Part shown: piece after piece, positions 1,975-9,278 of the stretch
How the letters are laid out: each line of letters begins with the position of its first letter
How positions within the stretch are numbered: position 1 is the stretch's first letter
Virus record (IMG/VR): IMGVR_UViG_2690316243_000015
Span: 1 to 9,278 of that record
From: a virus
Taxonomy: Duplodnaviria; Heunggongvirae; Uroviricota; Caudoviricetes
DNA: 9,278 bases
Strand: one strand, 5' to 3'
Translations under genes and position numbers: made by a program
Notes under the pieces: model-generated
Database searches by the model: none
Seen by the model: only the letters and a program-made list of their open reading frames with translations
Told to the model about the DNA's origin: nothing

Positions 1975-3729
1975 CTATAAAAACGCGTCGCAATCGTCTG
2001 TTGTTATTGCGTTAGTCTGCGTTACCCCCTTAATTTTCCGCGTAATATATTCATGTCCGTAAACTTTCGCCGCTGGCTTCATAGCTTTGCTGAACTCAGC
2101 TACGTTCAGCGGCTTGTTCCTGCCGGCATACGCCATAAACGCCAGATAGACGCGGTAAAGGCTGTTTCTGGTCGTGTACCTGGAAGAGTCACCGCCGCCG
2201 CCCATCATCAGGCCGCGTGCTTCTTCCAGAAAGTTAAGGAACTGGCAAAATTCAATAACCGGATCCGTCTGTTGCTTTATTGCCAGTGCTTCATCACCGT
2301 CACGCTGTTCCAGTAGTAAAGCCCGTGCCTTTTCAGGGTCGGCAAAGTTCGCCAGCAAGCGGCGGATAATGACTGGGATTTCAGCCGCGATTTTTTCCGG
2401 TAGTTCTCTGTCTTTTTCGGCCTCACTGACGATATTGTCGAAACGGAAAATCACGCGACGACGTGCCACGCCTCCGGCCCGTTCGGTGAATATCATCGGG
2501 TTGTTATTGGTTGCCAGCACAACCGCCCTGATTACCGCTGTGAAACGCTTCTCATATTTCGGGTTAATTTCCACGGGGTCGCCGCCAGTGATTTTCTTGA
2601 TGCCCGTGCCTTCGCCTGTATATTTCGGCTGGTCTGCCAGGACAATAAGCCGACTCCCGACAACCTGCGCACGTCCACCAGCATCATCAAGCGATGTCAT
2701 TTCAGCGCTTACCGTGTTCTGTTTCCCTGCCAGAAGGCTGGCTATGTGCGTGAAAGTGCTCTTGCCGCTCCCGCCGTCTCCGGTGGCCTCAATAAACATC
2801 TGCCAGTCGTGGCGGTTCGCCATAATCATGTACAGCGCGGCGCATATGCGCATCATCTTGTGCGGGTCTTTTCCGGCTGCATGTTCAAGCCATTTGTGGA
2901 AGTTCGGCGCGTTGTCGCGGATGTTTTCCCCTGGTACTGGTGGCGTGTATTCAATGCCGTTGTGTGTGGTGAGCCAGTTCTCCGGCTGGTGCGGTGAAAA
3001 TTCCCCCGTTATCAGGTTAAGCACACCATTGGCAAACGGCAGCAAATCACCGGACGGCTCGCCCATCGGGTCAGCAATAACTTTTAACGCTTCAACGGCG
3101 TTATTAATTGCCCGCTTGCTGAATGTGGCCCCGTGTTCTGAATAAACCGCCACCATTTCGCGGCTCAGTTCCATTGTGCTGACCGGACACCATACCCCGC
3201 CGCGCCATACGTGAACGATTTCACTTTCAGGATGCACGCAAACGCCATCAAAGCGATCGGCAAGCAGCTGCGCGCGCTCACTGTCCGCCATCTGCGAAAG
3301 TTGCGCCTTTTGCGTTACCGGAAGCTCAATCACCAGACCATCAGAAAGATTCTGGCGCTCACGGGCCAGATATTCGCGCCAGTTCTGCACCTCCTGGCCG
3401 TGCATACCCTCAGGATAAAAATTTGCATCCTGTACGCCTGCCGCCGCCAGCTTCTGACCAATCGCCTTGATCATTACAGGCTCAAGATGTCCGGCTCTGT
3501 ATATGCGTGCTGATTTTCTGCCATCCGGCACAATTTGCAGATTATCTAGTTCGGATAGCTGCTGCTCTCCAAGCCACACAGGAGGCTCATTATCTCCGGC
3601 TGTACGCGCGTCATGTTCCTGCCACTGTTTCGCGTGTGCCCAGGCATCACTACCCGCAAAAATGATCACTTCGGTTTGAGCGTGTTTTATTCCGCGTGGC
3701 TGTTTTTTTACGTTCGGTGCCAGTTTCAT
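1975..3729 (-). CDS. P4 alpha-type replication protein (phage/plasmid primase, P4-family C-terminal domain with SF3-type helicase Walker A GDGGSGKST)
   Basis: 584-aa ORF; Walker A TGDGGSGKSTF; later VVLATNNNP resembles SF3 helicase motif C; overall resemblance to P4-family primase C-terminal region. AGGGG Shine-Dalgarno 8 nt upstream; ATGA overlap with the upstream gene. Confidence 0.8.
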   Translation of the reverse strand: MKLAPNVKKQPRGIKHAQTEVIIFAGSDAWAHAKQWQEHDARTAGDNEPPVWLGEQQLSELDNLQIVPDGRKSARIYRAGHLEPVMIKAIGQKLAAAGVQDANFYPEGMHGQEVQNWREYLARERQNLSDGLVIELPVTQKAQLSQMADSERAQLLADRFDGVCVHPESEIVHVWRGGVWCPVSTMELSREMVAVYSEHGATFSKRAINNAVEALKVIADPMGEPSGDLLPFANGVLNLITGEFSPHQPENWLTTHNGIEYTPPVPGENIRDNAPNFHKWLEHAAGKDPHKMMRICAALYMIMANRHDWQMFIEATGDGGSGKSTFTHIASLLAGKQNTVSAEMTSLDDAGGRAQVVGSRLIVLADQPKYTGEGTGIKKITGGDPVEINPKYEKRFTAVIRAVVLATNNNPMIFTERAGGVARRRVIFRFDNIVSEAEKDRELPEKIAAEIPVIIRRLLANFADPEKARALLLEQRDGDEALAIKQQTDPVIEFCQFLNFLEEARGLMMGGGGDSSRYTTRNSLYRVYLAFMAYAGRNKPLNVAEFSKAMKPAAKVYGHEYITRKIKGVTQTNAITTDDCDAFL

Positions 3730-4230: not shown

Positions 4231-4432
4231 GTCTCACCCCCTGAATATTCGCGTTAATCATTCCGGCACGTTCTGCGAGTTCCTGTAATGATTCCCTTGT
4301 TGCGACAATTGCTTCATCTGGCAGGTGGTAATTACATACCACGCGACCTTTATCCACATTGACCAGTAGCTGCCCGGTAAATTTCTCACGAAACTGAATG
4401 CGGTTAAGGTCGGTAAGTGACAGATTAATCAT
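4217..4432 (-). CDS. Small hypothetical protein (71 aa), paralogue of the adjacent 66-aa protein
   Basis: See the paralogue alignment above; GGAGGT Shine-Dalgarno 7 nt upstream; 8-nt overlap with the upstream 283-aa gene and 14-nt overlap with the downstream 66-aa gene. Confidence 0.5.
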   Translation of the reverse strand: MINLSLTDLNRIQFREKFTGQLLVNVDKGRVVCNYHLPDEAIVATRESLQELAERAGMINANIQGVRHESS

Positions 4433-5276
4433 GGCCCACCTCCTGACGAATACGGGCGGCGAATACCATCACGCAGCCATCAGGAGATTGCTGGCGGGCT
4501 TCCTGTTCGCTGGTGGCCACGATGTGAATCACGCGCGGTTGTGCTGTGCTCAGGGCGATAAAGCGCCAGATAAAGGCAGTTTGAGAATGTATAAGGGTAG
4601 GGGTAGTAGCCATGTTGGCAGCCTCCTTCAGATAGCAGGTTACGCTACCACCGGAAACGCCAATTTCGCTGGTGGTAGCCCAGACAGGGTTGGCGTAACC
4701 GGCTCTGAAGGATACCGGCGCTTCCGAAGAAGCCCCCGCCTGAGCCACCATTGATTGACAAAGGCGCTGGATTATACACCAACGCCCAAAAAATGGGTGA
4801 GTCAGACCTACGACATAAAAAAAGACGCTCGGCGCGTCATATGTCGCCTTCAGAATTTTCAGGACGCCAATCCTGGCCCCCGTTTTATGAGGTGCCTTAT
4901 AACCATAAACCGTGTTGCCGCATAACGGCAAGCTCTTTTTTATGGACTCCGAAAACTCACTATTGGAAGAACCAGAGGCACAGTACATCGCGCTCATTTC
5001 GTTAACGTTGCGCATGCGGACGAAGATTTTTGTGGAGTCACTACGCGAGCAGAACAGGTCATCTACGACCAGAAATTCTCTGGCGCAGCCGCTGACCTTC
5101 TCAACGCTAATATCATCGCCCGAGATTTCTGGCATGGTTAAGGCATCCGTTCCGACCACCAGCAAATGATAAACTTTGTTTGTATCTGCTGTATTAATGC
5201 CTGACTTTGCCGCCATATTGCTGGATTTTGGCGACATGCCAGCCAGTGAAAATATCTTCTTCTGGGCGGTTAGCAT
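4425..5276 (-). CDS. Hypothetical protein (283 aa), function unknown
   Basis: Long ORF with GGAGG Shine-Dalgarno 7 nt upstream of the ATG at 5274-5276; start overlaps the stop of the upstream small gene (ATGCTAA). No motif I can assign with confidence. Confidence 0.6.
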
Positions 5277-6267: not shown

Positions 6268-6699
6268 TTATGCGGCGGTGAGATTGTCCGGGTATAGATT
6301 GAGAATGTCGGCAATTTCAGGCTGAGAAAGTCCCTGATAGCCGCCAGCGTCGGCGTTATGGTTCACAAGCCGAATAACTTTTAGAACGTCACCGCGCCCG
6401 GTAAAGCGATAGCGTAAATGTGACCCTATCCCGTCGGGGTTCTTTTCGTCTATACGCTCAAGCTGAATATCAAGCCTGCGCTCTAACTCGCTGGCGTAGT
6501 TCCTTCCAGACGAAAGGCGGCAATAACGCAGAATGTCATTTTCTGTCCATCCCTCTATACCAGTACGCAGCATATAGACTCTGGCACGATGCTTTTTCGG
6601 TGTGCGCTTTGGTGCTTGAAGGGATTTTGTAAGGGGCGTAACATCAGATACGCGAATATCTGAATTAGCCGCCTGTAATGGGCGGTTTTTCTTTTCCAT
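6268..6699 (-). CDS. Hypothetical protein (143 aa), basic N-terminus, function unknown
   Basis: ORF with AAGGTGG Shine-Dalgarno; its ATG overlaps the AlpA stop by 1 nt (TGATG), indicating co-translation with alpA. No recognised family. Confidence 0.5.
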   Translation of the reverse strand: MEKKNRPLQAANSDIRVSDVTPLTKSLQAPKRTPKKHRARVYMLRTGIEGWTENDILRYCRLSSGRNYASELERRLDIQLERIDEKNPDGIGSHLRYRFTGRGDVLKVIRLVNHNADAGGYQGLSQPEIADILNLYPDNLTAA

Positions 6700-6902
6700 C
6701 AGGCCACCTTCCCGCGGCGTTCTGCCAGCCAGTTGTGAATCTCAACCGCATCAAACGCAGTTATTTTTTCTCCCAGCTTTACCGGACGTGGTAGTGAACC
6801 GTTTCTTACTTTACGGTCGATGGTGGATACACTAACGCCCAGCAATTCAGCCAGGCGGAAGCGTCTGATATAGCCTTTTGTAGGGATAGTGTCGATGTTC
6901 AT
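6699..6902 (-). CDS. alpA: AlpA/Vis-family transcriptional regulator / excision accessory protein (MerR-like HTH)
   Basis: 67 aa; IRRFRLAELLGVSVSTIDRKVRNGSLPRPVKLGEKITAFDAVEIHNWL fits the AlpA (CP4-57 regulatory protein) pattern of an HTH followed by P.P.KLG and a conserved W. Typical size and position next to a P4-type integrase. Confidence 0.8.
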   Translation of the reverse strand: MNIDTIPTKGYIRRFRLAELLGVSVSTIDRKVRNGSLPRPVKLGEKITAFDAVEIHNWLAERRGKVA

Positions 6903-6985
6903 GATTCCCGTAACCTCTTAGCGATAGTTGTTGCTTCGTTACGGGTATTTAATGGCGTGCACGCTCAAAAAGGAATGATCGTATT

Positions 6986-7028
6986 TTTTACTATCGTGAT
7001 AGTAAAATTTACTATCACCTTTTTTTCC
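6986..7028. promoter_or_regulatory. Perfect 23-bp palindrome GTGATAGTAAAATTTACTATCAC (6996-7018) with an extra TACTATC half-site (6989-6995), followed by a T7 run; operator-like site or terminator
   Basis: Direct reading: three TACTATC/GATAGTA half-sites centred ~10-11 bp apart; lies ~95-125 nt upstream of the alpA ATG and overlaps the stop codon of the 282-aa gene. Confidence 0.4.
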
Positions 7029-7863
7029 CTGCCGTGGTGCGTTCTTCCGGTGTTCTGTCTGCGTCGGCTATGAGTTTCTTCAGGTAATCTATGGATGGCT
7101 CATCATAGCCGCCCCCCAAAAGCGCCCAGTGGTTTATTGTGGCGTTCGCCCATGCTTCGTTGGTTTCCTTCCCGTTCTTCCCTTTACACTCTTCTGGGTA
7201 GTGCCGCTTCACATAAATCAACGCCAAGAGGCAAATTTCGCGCTTTTGCCTGTGGCGCTCTCTGTTTCCGTGCTCAACGTTTTTAACATCCTCATAAAGA
7301 GCTTGTAAGTTTATGCGAGTTTCGGGGCTGTATATGGGCTGGTTTTTGTCCATGCATTCGCCGATATATTCAACCCACGGCCTTGTTATGTACAAATCCT
7401 CTACGGATATTTCGTGGAAGGCATGTTTTGTATAATCGAGAAAAAAATAATAATTCGCACTTACGTCTAGTTCTCTTTTTCTGTGTGCGGGGCTGAATAT
7501 GCGTGCGGGAGTGTCAATAGAATCAAGCCCTGCGATGTCGAGTATATAGGAGGCGTTAACATGCCATAGCCCAAGCACATGGCAATCTATATGATTTACA
7601 ACGCCTGCCTTAAAGCTTTTTTCGTCCTCTACTTCAGTGATTATGTCGGCAAGTAATAAGCAGTCTTCTTTGACGTCTGGGAATAAAGAGCAATTGCGGT
7701 AAAGACTCGCGATGCTATGTAATGTGCCGTCGTAGCCGCAAAGGTACGCGCTCAAATATATAGATTCTGCCGCCGCCATAATCAAAAGATCATCAATATC
7801 TATTTCTAATAATTCGGCTGCTCTGTTAAGCCTGAAAAAAGGGGCGGGTGGTAATTTTTTCAT
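7015..7863 (-). CDS. Hypothetical protein (282 aa); AT-rich orphan gene between int and alpA
   Basis: Intact ORF with AAGGTG Shine-Dalgarno 7 nt upstream. Hand GC counts on three 60-nt lines inside it give ~35-43%, against ~60% for sampled lines in int and the primase. No recognised catalytic motif. Confidence 0.6.
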   Translation of the reverse strand: MKKLPPAPFFRLNRAAELLEIDIDDLLIMAAAESIYLSAYLCGYDGTLHSIASLYRNCSLFPDVKEDCLLLADIITEVEDEKSFKAGVVNHIDCHVLGLWHVNASYILDIAGLDSIDTPARIFSPAHRKRELDVSANYYFFLDYTKHAFHEISVEDLYITRPWVEYIGECMDKNQPIYSPETRINLQALYEDVKNVEHGNRERHRQKREICLLALIYVKRHYPEECKGKNGKETNEAWANATINHWALLGGGYDEPSIDYLKKLIADADRTPEERTTAGKKR

Positions 7864-7958
7864 TGCGTCACCTTTTACGCTGCGCCTTATTTTGTGATTG
7901 AGCCAGGCGGTAAGGCTTCCCGCTTTTCGCCCCGTCGAGCTAGGCTCAATCTATTCAG

Positions 7959-9278
7959 TTAGTTCGCCCTTCTGAGAGGCGTTACGTTGTAGTCTTTTCC
8001 GCTTTCCAGTGCCACCAGCAGATCAGCCCACTGTGCCAGTGCTGCTTTACGCTCATCAAAATACTGATGGCGGTTATAAATCCCCTCTACGCCCTTAATG
8101 CGATGATTGAGGCATCGTTCCGCCACAACAGGATCAACACCCAACGCTGCTAAATGAGTACGTGCGGTGCGTCGAAAGTCGTGAATCGTGAAATTAGGCA
8201 CATCCGGCATTTCGGCGCGAACCTTAGCCAGTGCTACGGGTAAAGTGCTTTCCTGAATATGTGGGATCATTCTGTTTTGCATCTTCCTGGCCGGAAGCAC
8301 CCATGCGCTATTACATGAAAAGGTGTGTAGCTCTCTCAACCATTCAACGGCTGGGGAAGGTAGAGGTATATCAATAGGGTCTCCGTTTTTGCTGCGTTCT
8401 TCCGGCAAATGCCATACCGCACCATCTAAATCAAACTCTTCCCATCGTGCGGCGCATAATTCCATTTTGCGGACGCATAACGCTAACAGTAATTTGAACG
8501 TGATTTCGTTCTGGCGACTGAATCCCTTAGCCGTGCGCATGGCTTTGAATAGCTGGATTAACTCATCGCGGGTTAACCAGCGGTCACGGGCAGCTTCTTT
8601 CCCTCCGGCGTCTGCCACCTCAAAGGCTGAACAGGGGTTAATCTCTAGCGCGTGCCGTTTGATTCCGTAGTCGAATATGCGGCGCGTCCATCTCAGCACG
8701 TCCGTTGCTATGGTCGGCGCTCCACGGTCAACAATACCTTTCAGCATGTCATCGATATGGCGCGGTTTCACGTCCTCTACCTTCATGCTGCCAATGCAGG
8801 GGTTTATATCTTTGTCGATACGGCGGCGGAGTATATCGGGGTGCTTCCAGCGCGGGAGGATCTGACGCTCAAAGTATTCAGCGGCAAGCTCTGAAACGCG
8901 CATAGCGTTCTTCTCTGCTTCCATCTTCGCCAGTGCTTCGGTTTTGCGCTTCTGCTTCTCTCCTGCAACGTCATAGCCCAGCGCAACGCGAGCCGATAGC
9001 TCTTTGGCTGTCTCTCTGGCCTTTGATAGTGATAGCTCGCTATACGAACCAATTAGCATGGCGCGGGACTTCCCTGCGAGTTTATAGCGGAATCTCCATG
9101 TGGGGGTTTTGTCGGCTTCACGGTAACGTAGGTATAAACCGTTACCGTCTGCCCGCCCCTCGAATCGCTCTCCGCTCTTAATCCATGCGCGGATCTGCAT
9201 GTCTGTTAGTTTTGGCATTTTGCGAATATCCAAACTTTGAATAGGGGGTGTACCCAAAGCAATGTACCCAAACCTCAT
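7959..9278 (-). CDS. int: Tyrosine site-specific integrase (P4-like); 5' end at or beyond the window edge
   Basis: C-terminal catalytic region with HDFRRTARTHL (HxxR) and terminal IYNRHQYFDER (candidate catalytic Tyr); N-terminal region typical of phage integrase arm-binding domains. The ORF reaches the window edge at 9278; an internal ATG at 9216-9218 (MPKLTDMQIRAW...) is a plausible true start but has no clear Shine-Dalgarno. Confidence 0.9.
   Translation of the reverse strand: MRFGYIALGTPPIQSLDIRKMPKLTDMQIRAWIKSGERFEGRADGNGLYLRYREADKTPTWRFRYKLAGKSRAMLIGSYSELSLSKARETAKELSARVALGYDVAGEKQKRKTEALAKMEAEKNAMRVSELAAEYFERQILPRWKHPDILRRRIDKDINPCIGSMKVEDVKPRHIDDMLKGIVDRGAPTIATDVLRWTRRIFDYGIKRHALEINPCSAFEVADAGGKEAARDRWLTRDELIQLFKAMRTAKGFSRQNEITFKLLLALCVRKMELCAARWEEFDLDGAVWHLPEERSKNGDPIDIPLPSPAVEWLRELHTFSCNSAWVLPARKMQNRMIPHIQESTLPVALAKVRAEMPDVPNFTIHDFRRTARTHLAALGVDPVVAERCLNHRIKGVEGIYNRHQYFDERKAALAQWADLLVALESGKDYNVTPLRRAN

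Follow-up and report, generated by a model that had tools for sequence, protein, structure and literature searches.

The window analyzed here, a stretch of 9,278 nucleotides of viral DNA, carries all of its genes on the minus strand. Read in that direction, they begin with the gene for a P4-type tyrosine integrase (int, 7959..9278), recognized by its Arm-DNA-bind_3, Phage_int_M, and Phage_integrase matches. It is followed by a 7-nt spacer, an inverted repeat, an ORF of 282 aa (7015..7863), a gene for an AlpA-family HTH protein (6699..6902; Phage_AlpA, 2e-8), and then the AntA, Ash, DUF4222, and D5-type primase genes. The stop codon of int (TAA, 7961-7959) and the ATG of the 282-aa ORF (7863-7861) lie on either side of the repeat; the function of this ORF is unassigned, and it is referred to below as the cargo ORF. 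As listed, the int ORF is 439 aa long, and its start coincides with the end of the window (9219-9278); orthologous integrases in RefSeq are annotated as 419 aa (1260 nt), and the true start is probably about 20 codons downstream of the listed one.

A sequence-only reading of this region had called attention to a 9-bp inverted repeat 3′ of int. The repeat is there as described: its arms, GATTGAGCC (7896-7904) and GGCTCAATC (7943-7951), are complementary at 9 of 9 positions and lie 38 nt apart. By itself it is unremarkable, as inverted repeats of 9 nt or more within 60 nt occur 13 times in the window. About 2 repeats of that size are expected by chance (an estimate from 9278 positions x about 48 spacings x 4^-9), and an expectation of zero, computed for the exact arm sequence, is the wrong null for a bare repeat. 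The calculation of folding energy that had been proposed as a check gives −32.4 kcal/mol for the minus strand, a fold only modestly better than those of shuffled sequences (z = −2.5). The evidence that the repeat is real lies in its match to an Rfam covariance model and in the compensatory variation that the stem shows among relatives. The case for its function comes from the comparison with relatives, not from the size of the repeat or the energy of the fold.

The Rfam scan matches the minus strand from 7950 to 7884 to RF02996, the int-alpA RNA, with a score of 60.6 bits (E = 6e-11; gathering cut-off, 35.8 bits), and the match spans positions 1-71 of the 71 in the model. The two arms of the repeat form helix P1 of this RNA, a three-way junction of about 70 nt that belongs to a catalogued family; the window holds no new kind of element. 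In the RF02996 alignment, P1 (5′ arm 7951-7943, 3′ arm 7904-7896, minus strand) closes the junction, and the presumed 38-nt spacer of the repeat is made up of two hairpins and the segments that join them. P2, GCUC-GACG-GGGC (7929..7940), is flanked by UA (7942-7941) and GAAAA (7928-7924); P3, GCGG-GAAGCCUUA-CCGC (7907..7923), is followed by the junction dinucleotide CU (7906-7905). The suggestion of a stem-loop in the transcript was right insofar as there is structure at the RNA level on the int/cargo strand, between int and cargo, and wrong in its shape, which is a three-way junction rather than one long stem-loop. All of the junction nucleotides of the family (C-UAG, CGAAAA, and CU-G) are present. 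So is the genomic setting, for the copy in the window lies between int and alpA on the same strand, with the 282-aa ORF separating the RNA from alpA, an order that most relatives share. The purine box that the model places a few nucleotides 3′ of P1 (...uaAgGG) reads UAAGGC here (7889-7884).

The int-alpA family comes from the survey of Weinberg et al. published in 2017 (PMC5737381). The main text of that paper does not discuss the motif, and a drawing of the pseudoknot considered below may already be found in its supplement. In the portions of the literature consulted, no description of a function was found, and elsewhere the motif is merely listed; its Rfam type label is 'Gene; sRNA', with function unassigned. 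With respect to the same three-way junction, the same invariant junction nucleotides, and the int/alpA location, the window copy does not differ structurally from the RF02996 entry. The account developed here departs from that entry in arguing that the RNA is a cis-acting leader, about 25 nt longer than the Rfam model by inclusion of a fourth hairpin (P4), the Shine-Dalgarno sequence (SD), and the start codon, and part of a portable gene block. The gene directly downstream is a variable ORF, not alpA.

A first search pattern, comprising the conserved core with P3 fixed, retrieved 99 genomic stretches, mostly from Beta- and Gammaproteobacteria, together with 51 viral contigs. The sequence-only reading had made its case depend on conservation of the repeat in relatives, and conservation is what is seen: in 44 diverse relatives P1 is 100% paired, with compensatory changes at 8 of its 9 pairs. 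The covariation score of P1 is 0.625 against 0.144 in shuffles, none of 500 of which reaches 0.625, and controls with slid partners score at most 0.10. An apparent invariance of P3, with anti-SD-like loops, in this first set proved to be an artifact of the pattern that fixed P3 and was corrected by searches that leave P3 free. The latter patterns fix only CTAG-P2-CGAAAA and yielded 239 unique instances among the matches listed; because many of these sequences, which were filtered on P1, are related, the counts given for them are not numbers of independent events. Many of the contigs found in this way are 30-110 kb in length and so represent whole phages. Phage copies were found only with the patterns that leave P3 free, and a search of phage GenBank entries with the intergenic region of the window gave no match.

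The other stems vary in the same compensatory way, and covariation extends over P1, P2, and P3 in several hundred relatives. In 179 unique instances picked by P1 alone, among the matches listed, pairs 1-4 of P3 are 98-99% paired, with exchange among GC, CG, AU, and UA, and pair 2 of P2 is 99% paired, with the same four types. The segment J3/1 is CU in 235 of the 239 instances among the matches listed. Across the family, P1 includes 58 G·U pairs and 782 Watson–Crick pairs, and the G·U pairs imply that the structure belongs to the sense strand, as RNA or as sense-strand nucleic acid. When phage loci were sampled, 13 of 16 scored above the cut-off of Rfam's own RF02996 model. The MAFFT alignment (A2) is sound for P1-P3 and out of register in the loop and tail, and for this reason covariation between the loop and the boxes was tested in Python by a permutation that compares a sequence's own loop with the loops of others.

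The P3 loop contains the segment GCCUUA (7911..7916), which has two alternative partners downstream, and the loop covaries with both. The nearer partner, box 1 (UAAGGC, 7884..7889), is the putative pseudoknot partner and will also be called the decoy. It is a perfect 6-nt complement of the P3 loop and begins 6 nt after P1, within the range of 5-8 nt seen across the family. The intervening spacer, ACAAAA (7895-7890), contains no G, and spacers in the family contain 3% G. Among the 239 unique instances in the matches listed, the P3 loop is perfectly complementary to 5 nt or more of the 18 nt that follow its own P1 in 76%, against 2.8% for loops that share no 4-mer; the test takes the best complement in a window, and the null was treated identically. 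The 113 instances in which P3 is not GCGG, among the matches listed, give 77% versus 2.5% for unrelated loops.

A second complement of at least 5 nt, box 2, is found in the next 25 nt in 61-65% of instances versus 8-10% for unrelated loops (among the matches listed). The spacing from box 1 to box 2 is 11-14 nt, and that from the end of box 2 to the start codon is 5-9 nt (mode 7), which puts box 2 at the position of the SD. The complementarity of loop and box 2 is more than the constraint imposed by an SD, because 28 of the 38 loop segments that are not SD-like (e.g., CGTAGA, TCGTC, and CATATTCA), out of 84 distinct complementary segments, are also matched at box 2, typically as the complement plus GAGG. 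The duplexes that the loop can form with box 1 and with box 2 are nearly equal in calculated short-duplex energy (−7.4 and −7.2 kcal/mol). In the window copy, the loop can form 6 pairs with box 1, and four Watson–Crick pairs and one G·U pair with box 2. Since the pairing with box 1 exceeds that with box 2, the open state of the model proposed below may predominate in this copy.

In the window, the SD and box 2 (AAGGU, 7874-7870) occupy the loop of the P4 hairpin, GCGU-AAAAGGUG-ACGC (7865..7880), and the minimum-energy fold of the leader leaves the SD exposed there. P4 has a stem of 5 bp or longer in 83% of the sequences; in shuffles the figure is 40%. Its stems represent 60 distinct sequences. 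The start codon follows P1 by 32 nt. Among the matches listed, an ORF start, called heuristically, follows P1 in 230 of 239 instances, mostly at 27-36 nt. These features suggest that the motif is longer than the Rfam model and includes the boxes that pair with the loop, P4, the SD, and the start codon.

Some copies appear to carry a promoter of their own. A TATAAT-like hexamer, with 5 or 6 of 6 positions matching, ends 4-7 nt before P1 in 62 of the 239 copies among the matches listed, 57 of them viral, where the background of such hexamers is 0-2 per position elsewhere; 36 of the 62 (again among the matches listed) also have the extended TGn motif. From the placement of the hexamer, transcription in promoter-bearing cassettes should start at P1, and the RNA would be a 5′-terminal leader. 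For the window copy, no promoter-like or terminator-like site was found on the minus strand, and the RNA is presumably transcribed together with int. There is no GC-rich hairpin with a U-tract directly behind it, as in an intrinsic terminator (the tail after P1 reads ACAAAAUAAGG), and the copy lacks the combination of promoter and terminator of its own that marks a trans-acting sRNA. The proposal that the repeat attenuates read-through from int into the cargo gene is unlikely on the same ground, for there is neither a U-tract nor a terminator-like site, and the anatomy downstream (the decoy, an SD held in a hairpin loop, and the spacing of P1 and start codon) points instead to control of translation.

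The genes around the RNA follow a few recurrent plans. In the first set of relatives, the ORF just before the RNA is usually an integrase whose stop codon lies about 5-9 nt before P1; over the family as a whole, the commonest distance of the upstream stop from P1 is 6-8 nt. Many betaproteobacterial loci have a pair of same-strand ORFs, each of about 100-115 aa, between the integrase and the RNA, the one nearer the RNA stopping 6-13 nt short of P1; no further copy of the RNA was found in the 650-1000 nt that separate it from int in these loci. Most gammaproteobacterial loci have an alpA-like ORF 650-1160 nt after the RNA, one gene beyond. The genes directly behind the RNA encode 112 distinct proteins that fall into 63 BLAST clusters, with almost no matches to Pfam or to defence systems. 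Among 5426 complete genomes of E. coli, 203 contain the exact 92-nt leader or close variants of it, always as a single, chromosomal, unannotated copy in the same architecture next to yicC; the leader of E. coli 042 is 100% identical to that of the window. No int-alpA RNA was detected at E <= 0.1 in CP4-57 of E. coli K-12 (intA-yfjH-alpA), the prophage from which alpA was originally described; there yfjH, between intA and alpA, lies on the opposite strand.

Alignment of the junction among related elements that carry other cargo, another check that had been put forward, places breakpoints at 7971/7978 and at 7859. Homology with strain M160133 extends through int and the leader to 7859, in codon 2 of the cargo ORF, and resumes at 6945, so that the same leader precedes a different ORF. 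In the siblings EC28 and PA45B, which occupy the same yicC site, homology stops at 7971/7978, within the last int codons, and resumes near 6943/6889; neither has the RNA or the cargo ORF of the window. In these two loci (3090-3175 in both), one has an 18-nt spacer and a plain SD, and in the other the int stop codon overlaps the next start codon, an overlap that reads as translational coupling. As delimited by the blastn breakpoints, the block that varies among sibling E. coli satellites (6946..7970, minus strand) extends from the last int codons through the RNA leader and the cargo ORF to the 3′ flank of that ORF. The sibling satellites indicate that the slot between int and alpA has been filled in at least three different ways, and, since they work without the RNA, that the RNA is dispensable for the int-alpA architecture. 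The repeat had also been viewed as a possible recombination scar at the boundary of the cargo insertion. A scar is not the right description of an element that is conserved, covarying, and functional; there is nonetheless a boundary nearby, as an edge of the variable block lies about 20 nt upstream of the repeat (7971/7978) in the comparison with siblings, with the RNA inside the block.

The same mobility is seen in phages. In Salmonella phage Seszw_1, an insert of 1044 nt separates the portal gene from the head-morphogenesis gene. It is made up of the RNA and a 300-aa ORF with repeats of the DUF723/T5orf172 type, brings replacement C-terminal codons for the portal gene and a new SD for the head gene, and is entirely absent from the relatives SB28 and ViII-E1. 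The leader is the same in Salmonella phage Skate, where it stands on a diverged allele whose protein is 42% identical. The 46-kb genome of Seszw_1 has two copies of the RNA motif (7362 and 12639) and an annotated HNH endonuclease just upstream of the portal gene, and in Klebsiella phages ZC2 and ZCKP8 an HNH endonuclease is annotated right after the portal gene; the portal region is thus a hotspot for selfish ORFs. Among the matches listed, 105 phage ORFs behind the RNA were scanned and gave matches to T5orf172 (15), DUF723 (14), MUG113 (13), DUF4379 (11), HNH_3 (9), NUMOD3 (5), AP2 (4), and Endonuclease_7 (3), counts that overlap because some domains co-occur in one protein. Antirepressor modules also occur. 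Domains characteristic of homing endonucleases and other selfish genes are overrepresented in the phage ORFs behind the RNA. Upstream of the RNA, the phages have arbitrary genes, including those for portal, capsid, tail, terminase, NrdD, and SSB proteins, among others; only 4 of 75 among the matches listed are integrases. The satellite and phage comparisons together suggest that the RNA and the ORF downstream of it behave as a single portable block.

We are inclined, with some reserve, to view the int-alpA RNA as a cis-acting leader that gates translation of the 282-aa ORF within a portable block of leader and ORF. Pairing of the P3 loop (GCCUUA) with box 1 (UAAGGC) would form a pseudoknot and leave the SD free in the loop of P4. 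Pairing with box 2 (AAGGU), in the SD region, would instead block the binding of ribosomes. The invariant junction (C-UAG / CGAAAA / CU-G) would set or sense which of the pairings forms. Translation of any ORF fused to the leader could be gated in this way, on int read-through in the case of the window or on a transcript of its own in many phages. In this two-state model, which is built on sequence covariation and short-duplex energies, the alternation of the pairings in vivo, the direction of the effect or default state, and the trigger are all proposals. A regulatory role is plausible because repression by RNA structure is established for the homing-endonuclease genes of T-even phages, those of T4 being regulated by structures that sequester the ribosome-binding site (RBS) (PMC2988022).

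The main rival explanation dispenses with switching. The three-way junction and the pseudoknot of loop and box 1 would form a fixed leader that shields the 5′ end, or the processed 5′ end, of the cargo mRNA from RNase E and exonucleases and insulates the RBS of P4 from upstream sequence. Any ORF placed behind such a leader would be reliably expressed, and the likeness of box 2 to box 1 would have some other cause. The exposure of the SD in the P4 loop of the minimum-energy fold fits this explanation and speaks against the gate, unrelated ORFs are indeed served by one leader, and P1 begins at the predicted +1 in the 62 promoter-bearing copies among the matches listed. Stem-loops that stabilize transcripts begin at the 5′ end, and P1 at +1 can be likened to them. 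There is a precedent for processing as well, since RNase E cleavage beside the seg genes of T4 is documented (PMC2988022). A static fold, however, has no need for two duplexes of about equal energy or for a box 2 that tracks the loop in 28 of 38 cores that are not SD-like, and for these reasons we consider it rather unlikely. A role of the repeat in RNA stability or in RNA processing, the latter also raised by the sequence-only reading, is still a serious rival. It is also conceivable, though improbable in our estimation, that the RNA is a true sensor: the junction core would bind a host or phage molecule, as a riboswitch or a factor-binding element does, and so flip the P3 loop between the decoy and the SD. 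If that were the case, selfish cassettes in phages and int-proximal cargo in satellites would be translated only in a particular state of infection. No inducer is known for the helper-dependent induction of Gram-negative satellites of the PICI type (PMC6092414), and a sensor beside alpA might help to supply the missing link.

Other explanations seem to us very improbable. The position of the motif 7 nt after the int stop codon, the stability of P1, and a spacer after P1 that is rich in U and C in many relatives (4 or more U among 8 nt in 60%) would suit a stem-loop in the 3′ untranslated region of int that terminates or attenuates transcription into the cargo, or that retro-regulates int. In phage lambda, sib is a long RNase III hairpin and terminator that acts on int mRNA, and like sib/tI the int-alpA RNA is structured RNA immediately 3′ of an integrase gene. 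Its closing stem, however, is of 9 bp, shorter than a sib-type RNase III site requires; there is no U-tract, the tail after P1 in the window beginning ACAAAA, and no other terminator-like site; and a branched junction is atypical of intrinsic terminators. The motif is also found far from any integrase, downstream of genes such as those for portal, capsid, and tail proteins, as well as at predicted 5′ ends of transcripts, with the ORF start at a fixed distance of 27-36 nt after P1, and we give termination or retro-regulation very little weight. We hold just as little belief in a trans-acting small RNA, the role implied by the Rfam classification and consistent with the promoter that a quarter of the copies possess (among the matches listed). 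No terminator follows the motif, the window copy is without a promoter-like site, and the spacing to an ORF start noted above for 230 of 239 copies among the matches listed is not expected of such an RNA. Moreover, the partners of the only variable loop lie in cis and covary with it. An element acting as DNA, whether a site of recombination or insertion (an attC-like folded strand or a homing target) or a scar at a cassette boundary, would account for the position at the edge of the variable block and for the company of homing-endonuclease-like genes. The survey of Weinberg et al. notes that its method also detects single-stranded DNA structures such as attC (PMC5737381). Against such an element stand the single copy per cassette, present on the 5′ side only and in strict orientation to the ORF; the complementarity of loop and SD, the fixed distance to the start codon, and the placement of the −10 hexamer at P1, which are features of gene expression; and breakpoints that are scattered (7971/7978 and 7859) rather than gathered at one crossover point. 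It too strikes us as very doubtful.

Several known classes of element were considered and rejected. An integron site of the attC type is contradicted by the single copy per element, by an integrase that is of the P4 type with an arm-binding domain rather than IntI, and by the tie of the junction to the SD and start codon. GGA is not conserved in the boxes, as CsrA binding would require; a hammerhead-like ribozyme would need a CUGAUGA core, which is absent; and no consistent start codon was found for an upstream leader peptide.

In its general plan the int-alpA RNA resembles the translational pseudoknot riboswitches SAM-II and preQ1-II, in which a conserved core is combined with variable, covarying stems and with a pseudoknot from loop to 3′ tail that is linked to access to the SD. 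The core, stems, and pseudoknot are arranged alike, but the gene context of the int-alpA RNA suggests no ligand, and its pseudoknot partner would be a decoy copy rather than the SD itself. Only the architecture, with its invariant junction, covarying stems, and two alternative pairings, is suggestive of a riboswitch class. The hairpins at the RBS of T-even homing-endonuclease genes (I-TevI, I-TevII, I-TevIII, segB, and mobE of Aeh1; PMC2988022) are alike in being RNA structures just upstream of a selfish ORF in a polycistronic message, in having a promoter at the edge of the structure, and in their presumed limiting or timing of translation. Those hairpins are simple, local, and lineage specific, with the SD buried in a stem (PMC2988022), whereas the int-alpA RNA is one conserved three-way junction found across Beta- and Gammaproteobacteria and phages. 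Its SD is located in a hairpin loop, that of P4 in the window, rather than paired in a local stem, and is proposed to be occluded by a distant loop that has a decoy partner. By this analogy, the resemblance to the T4 structures is one of function and not of family membership.

The family-level model, which combines a leader, a loop with dual pairing, a promoter at P1, and mobility as a block, is new with respect to the published accounts examined, including the main text of the original survey. It envisions one conserved leader common to hundreds of unrelated ORFs, often homing-endonuclease-like, in phages and satellites. If confirmed, it would represent a widespread modular device for translational control of mobile genes and would provide a handle on how satellites express the variable slot that separates int from alpA.

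The cargo protein itself has no match in Pfam, PHROG, or PADLOC; an N-terminal HTH had been suspected and is undetected by Pfam even at E = 10; and its homologs form only 6 clusters, all hypothetical. The AlphaFold model is of low confidence (mean pLDDT 59.9), and a Foldseek search of the PDB with it returned nothing at E <= 0.001. The protein and its homologs share a conserved N-terminal segment of about 45 aa, predicted as strand-helix-helix with pLDDT 75-87, and a conserved helical C-terminal segment of about 90 aa (EHGN...R...RE...NEAWANATI.HW), separated by a middle that is variable and poorly predicted. Several unrelated cargo proteins behind the int-alpA RNA have a similar-looking N terminus (e.g., FSYCRLSRGASFLGVEPSDLINL) that has no family match. 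Overlapping the cargo stop codon, and close to the right-hand limit of the variable block, is a perfect palindrome of 11 nt (6996-7006 / 7008-7018), contained in an imperfect inverted repeat of 29 nt (6967-7026); it is possible that this repeat serves as a terminator or as a protein-binding site.

Elsewhere in the window, full-length Rfam matches to C4 antisense RNA (4755..4668, minus strand; 79.9 bits) and to isrK (4895..4818, minus strand; 62.9 bits) identify the element as a P4-like satellite or cryptic prophage. Both lie inside the listed 283-aa 'Ash' ORF (4425..5276), and the real Ash/Icd-type gene probably starts downstream of C4 and isrK, giving an immunity region of the P1/P4 type. Immediately past the D5-type primase gene, on its 3′ side, positions 1747-1954 contain perfect inverted repeats of 9-12 nt built on a GGTAGA/TCTACC unit (1747/1791, 1853/1897, and 1883/1943). 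This cluster, which also accounts for a weak Rfam match to 'MIR2617' (1884-1961), looks like a replication origin of the iteron type.
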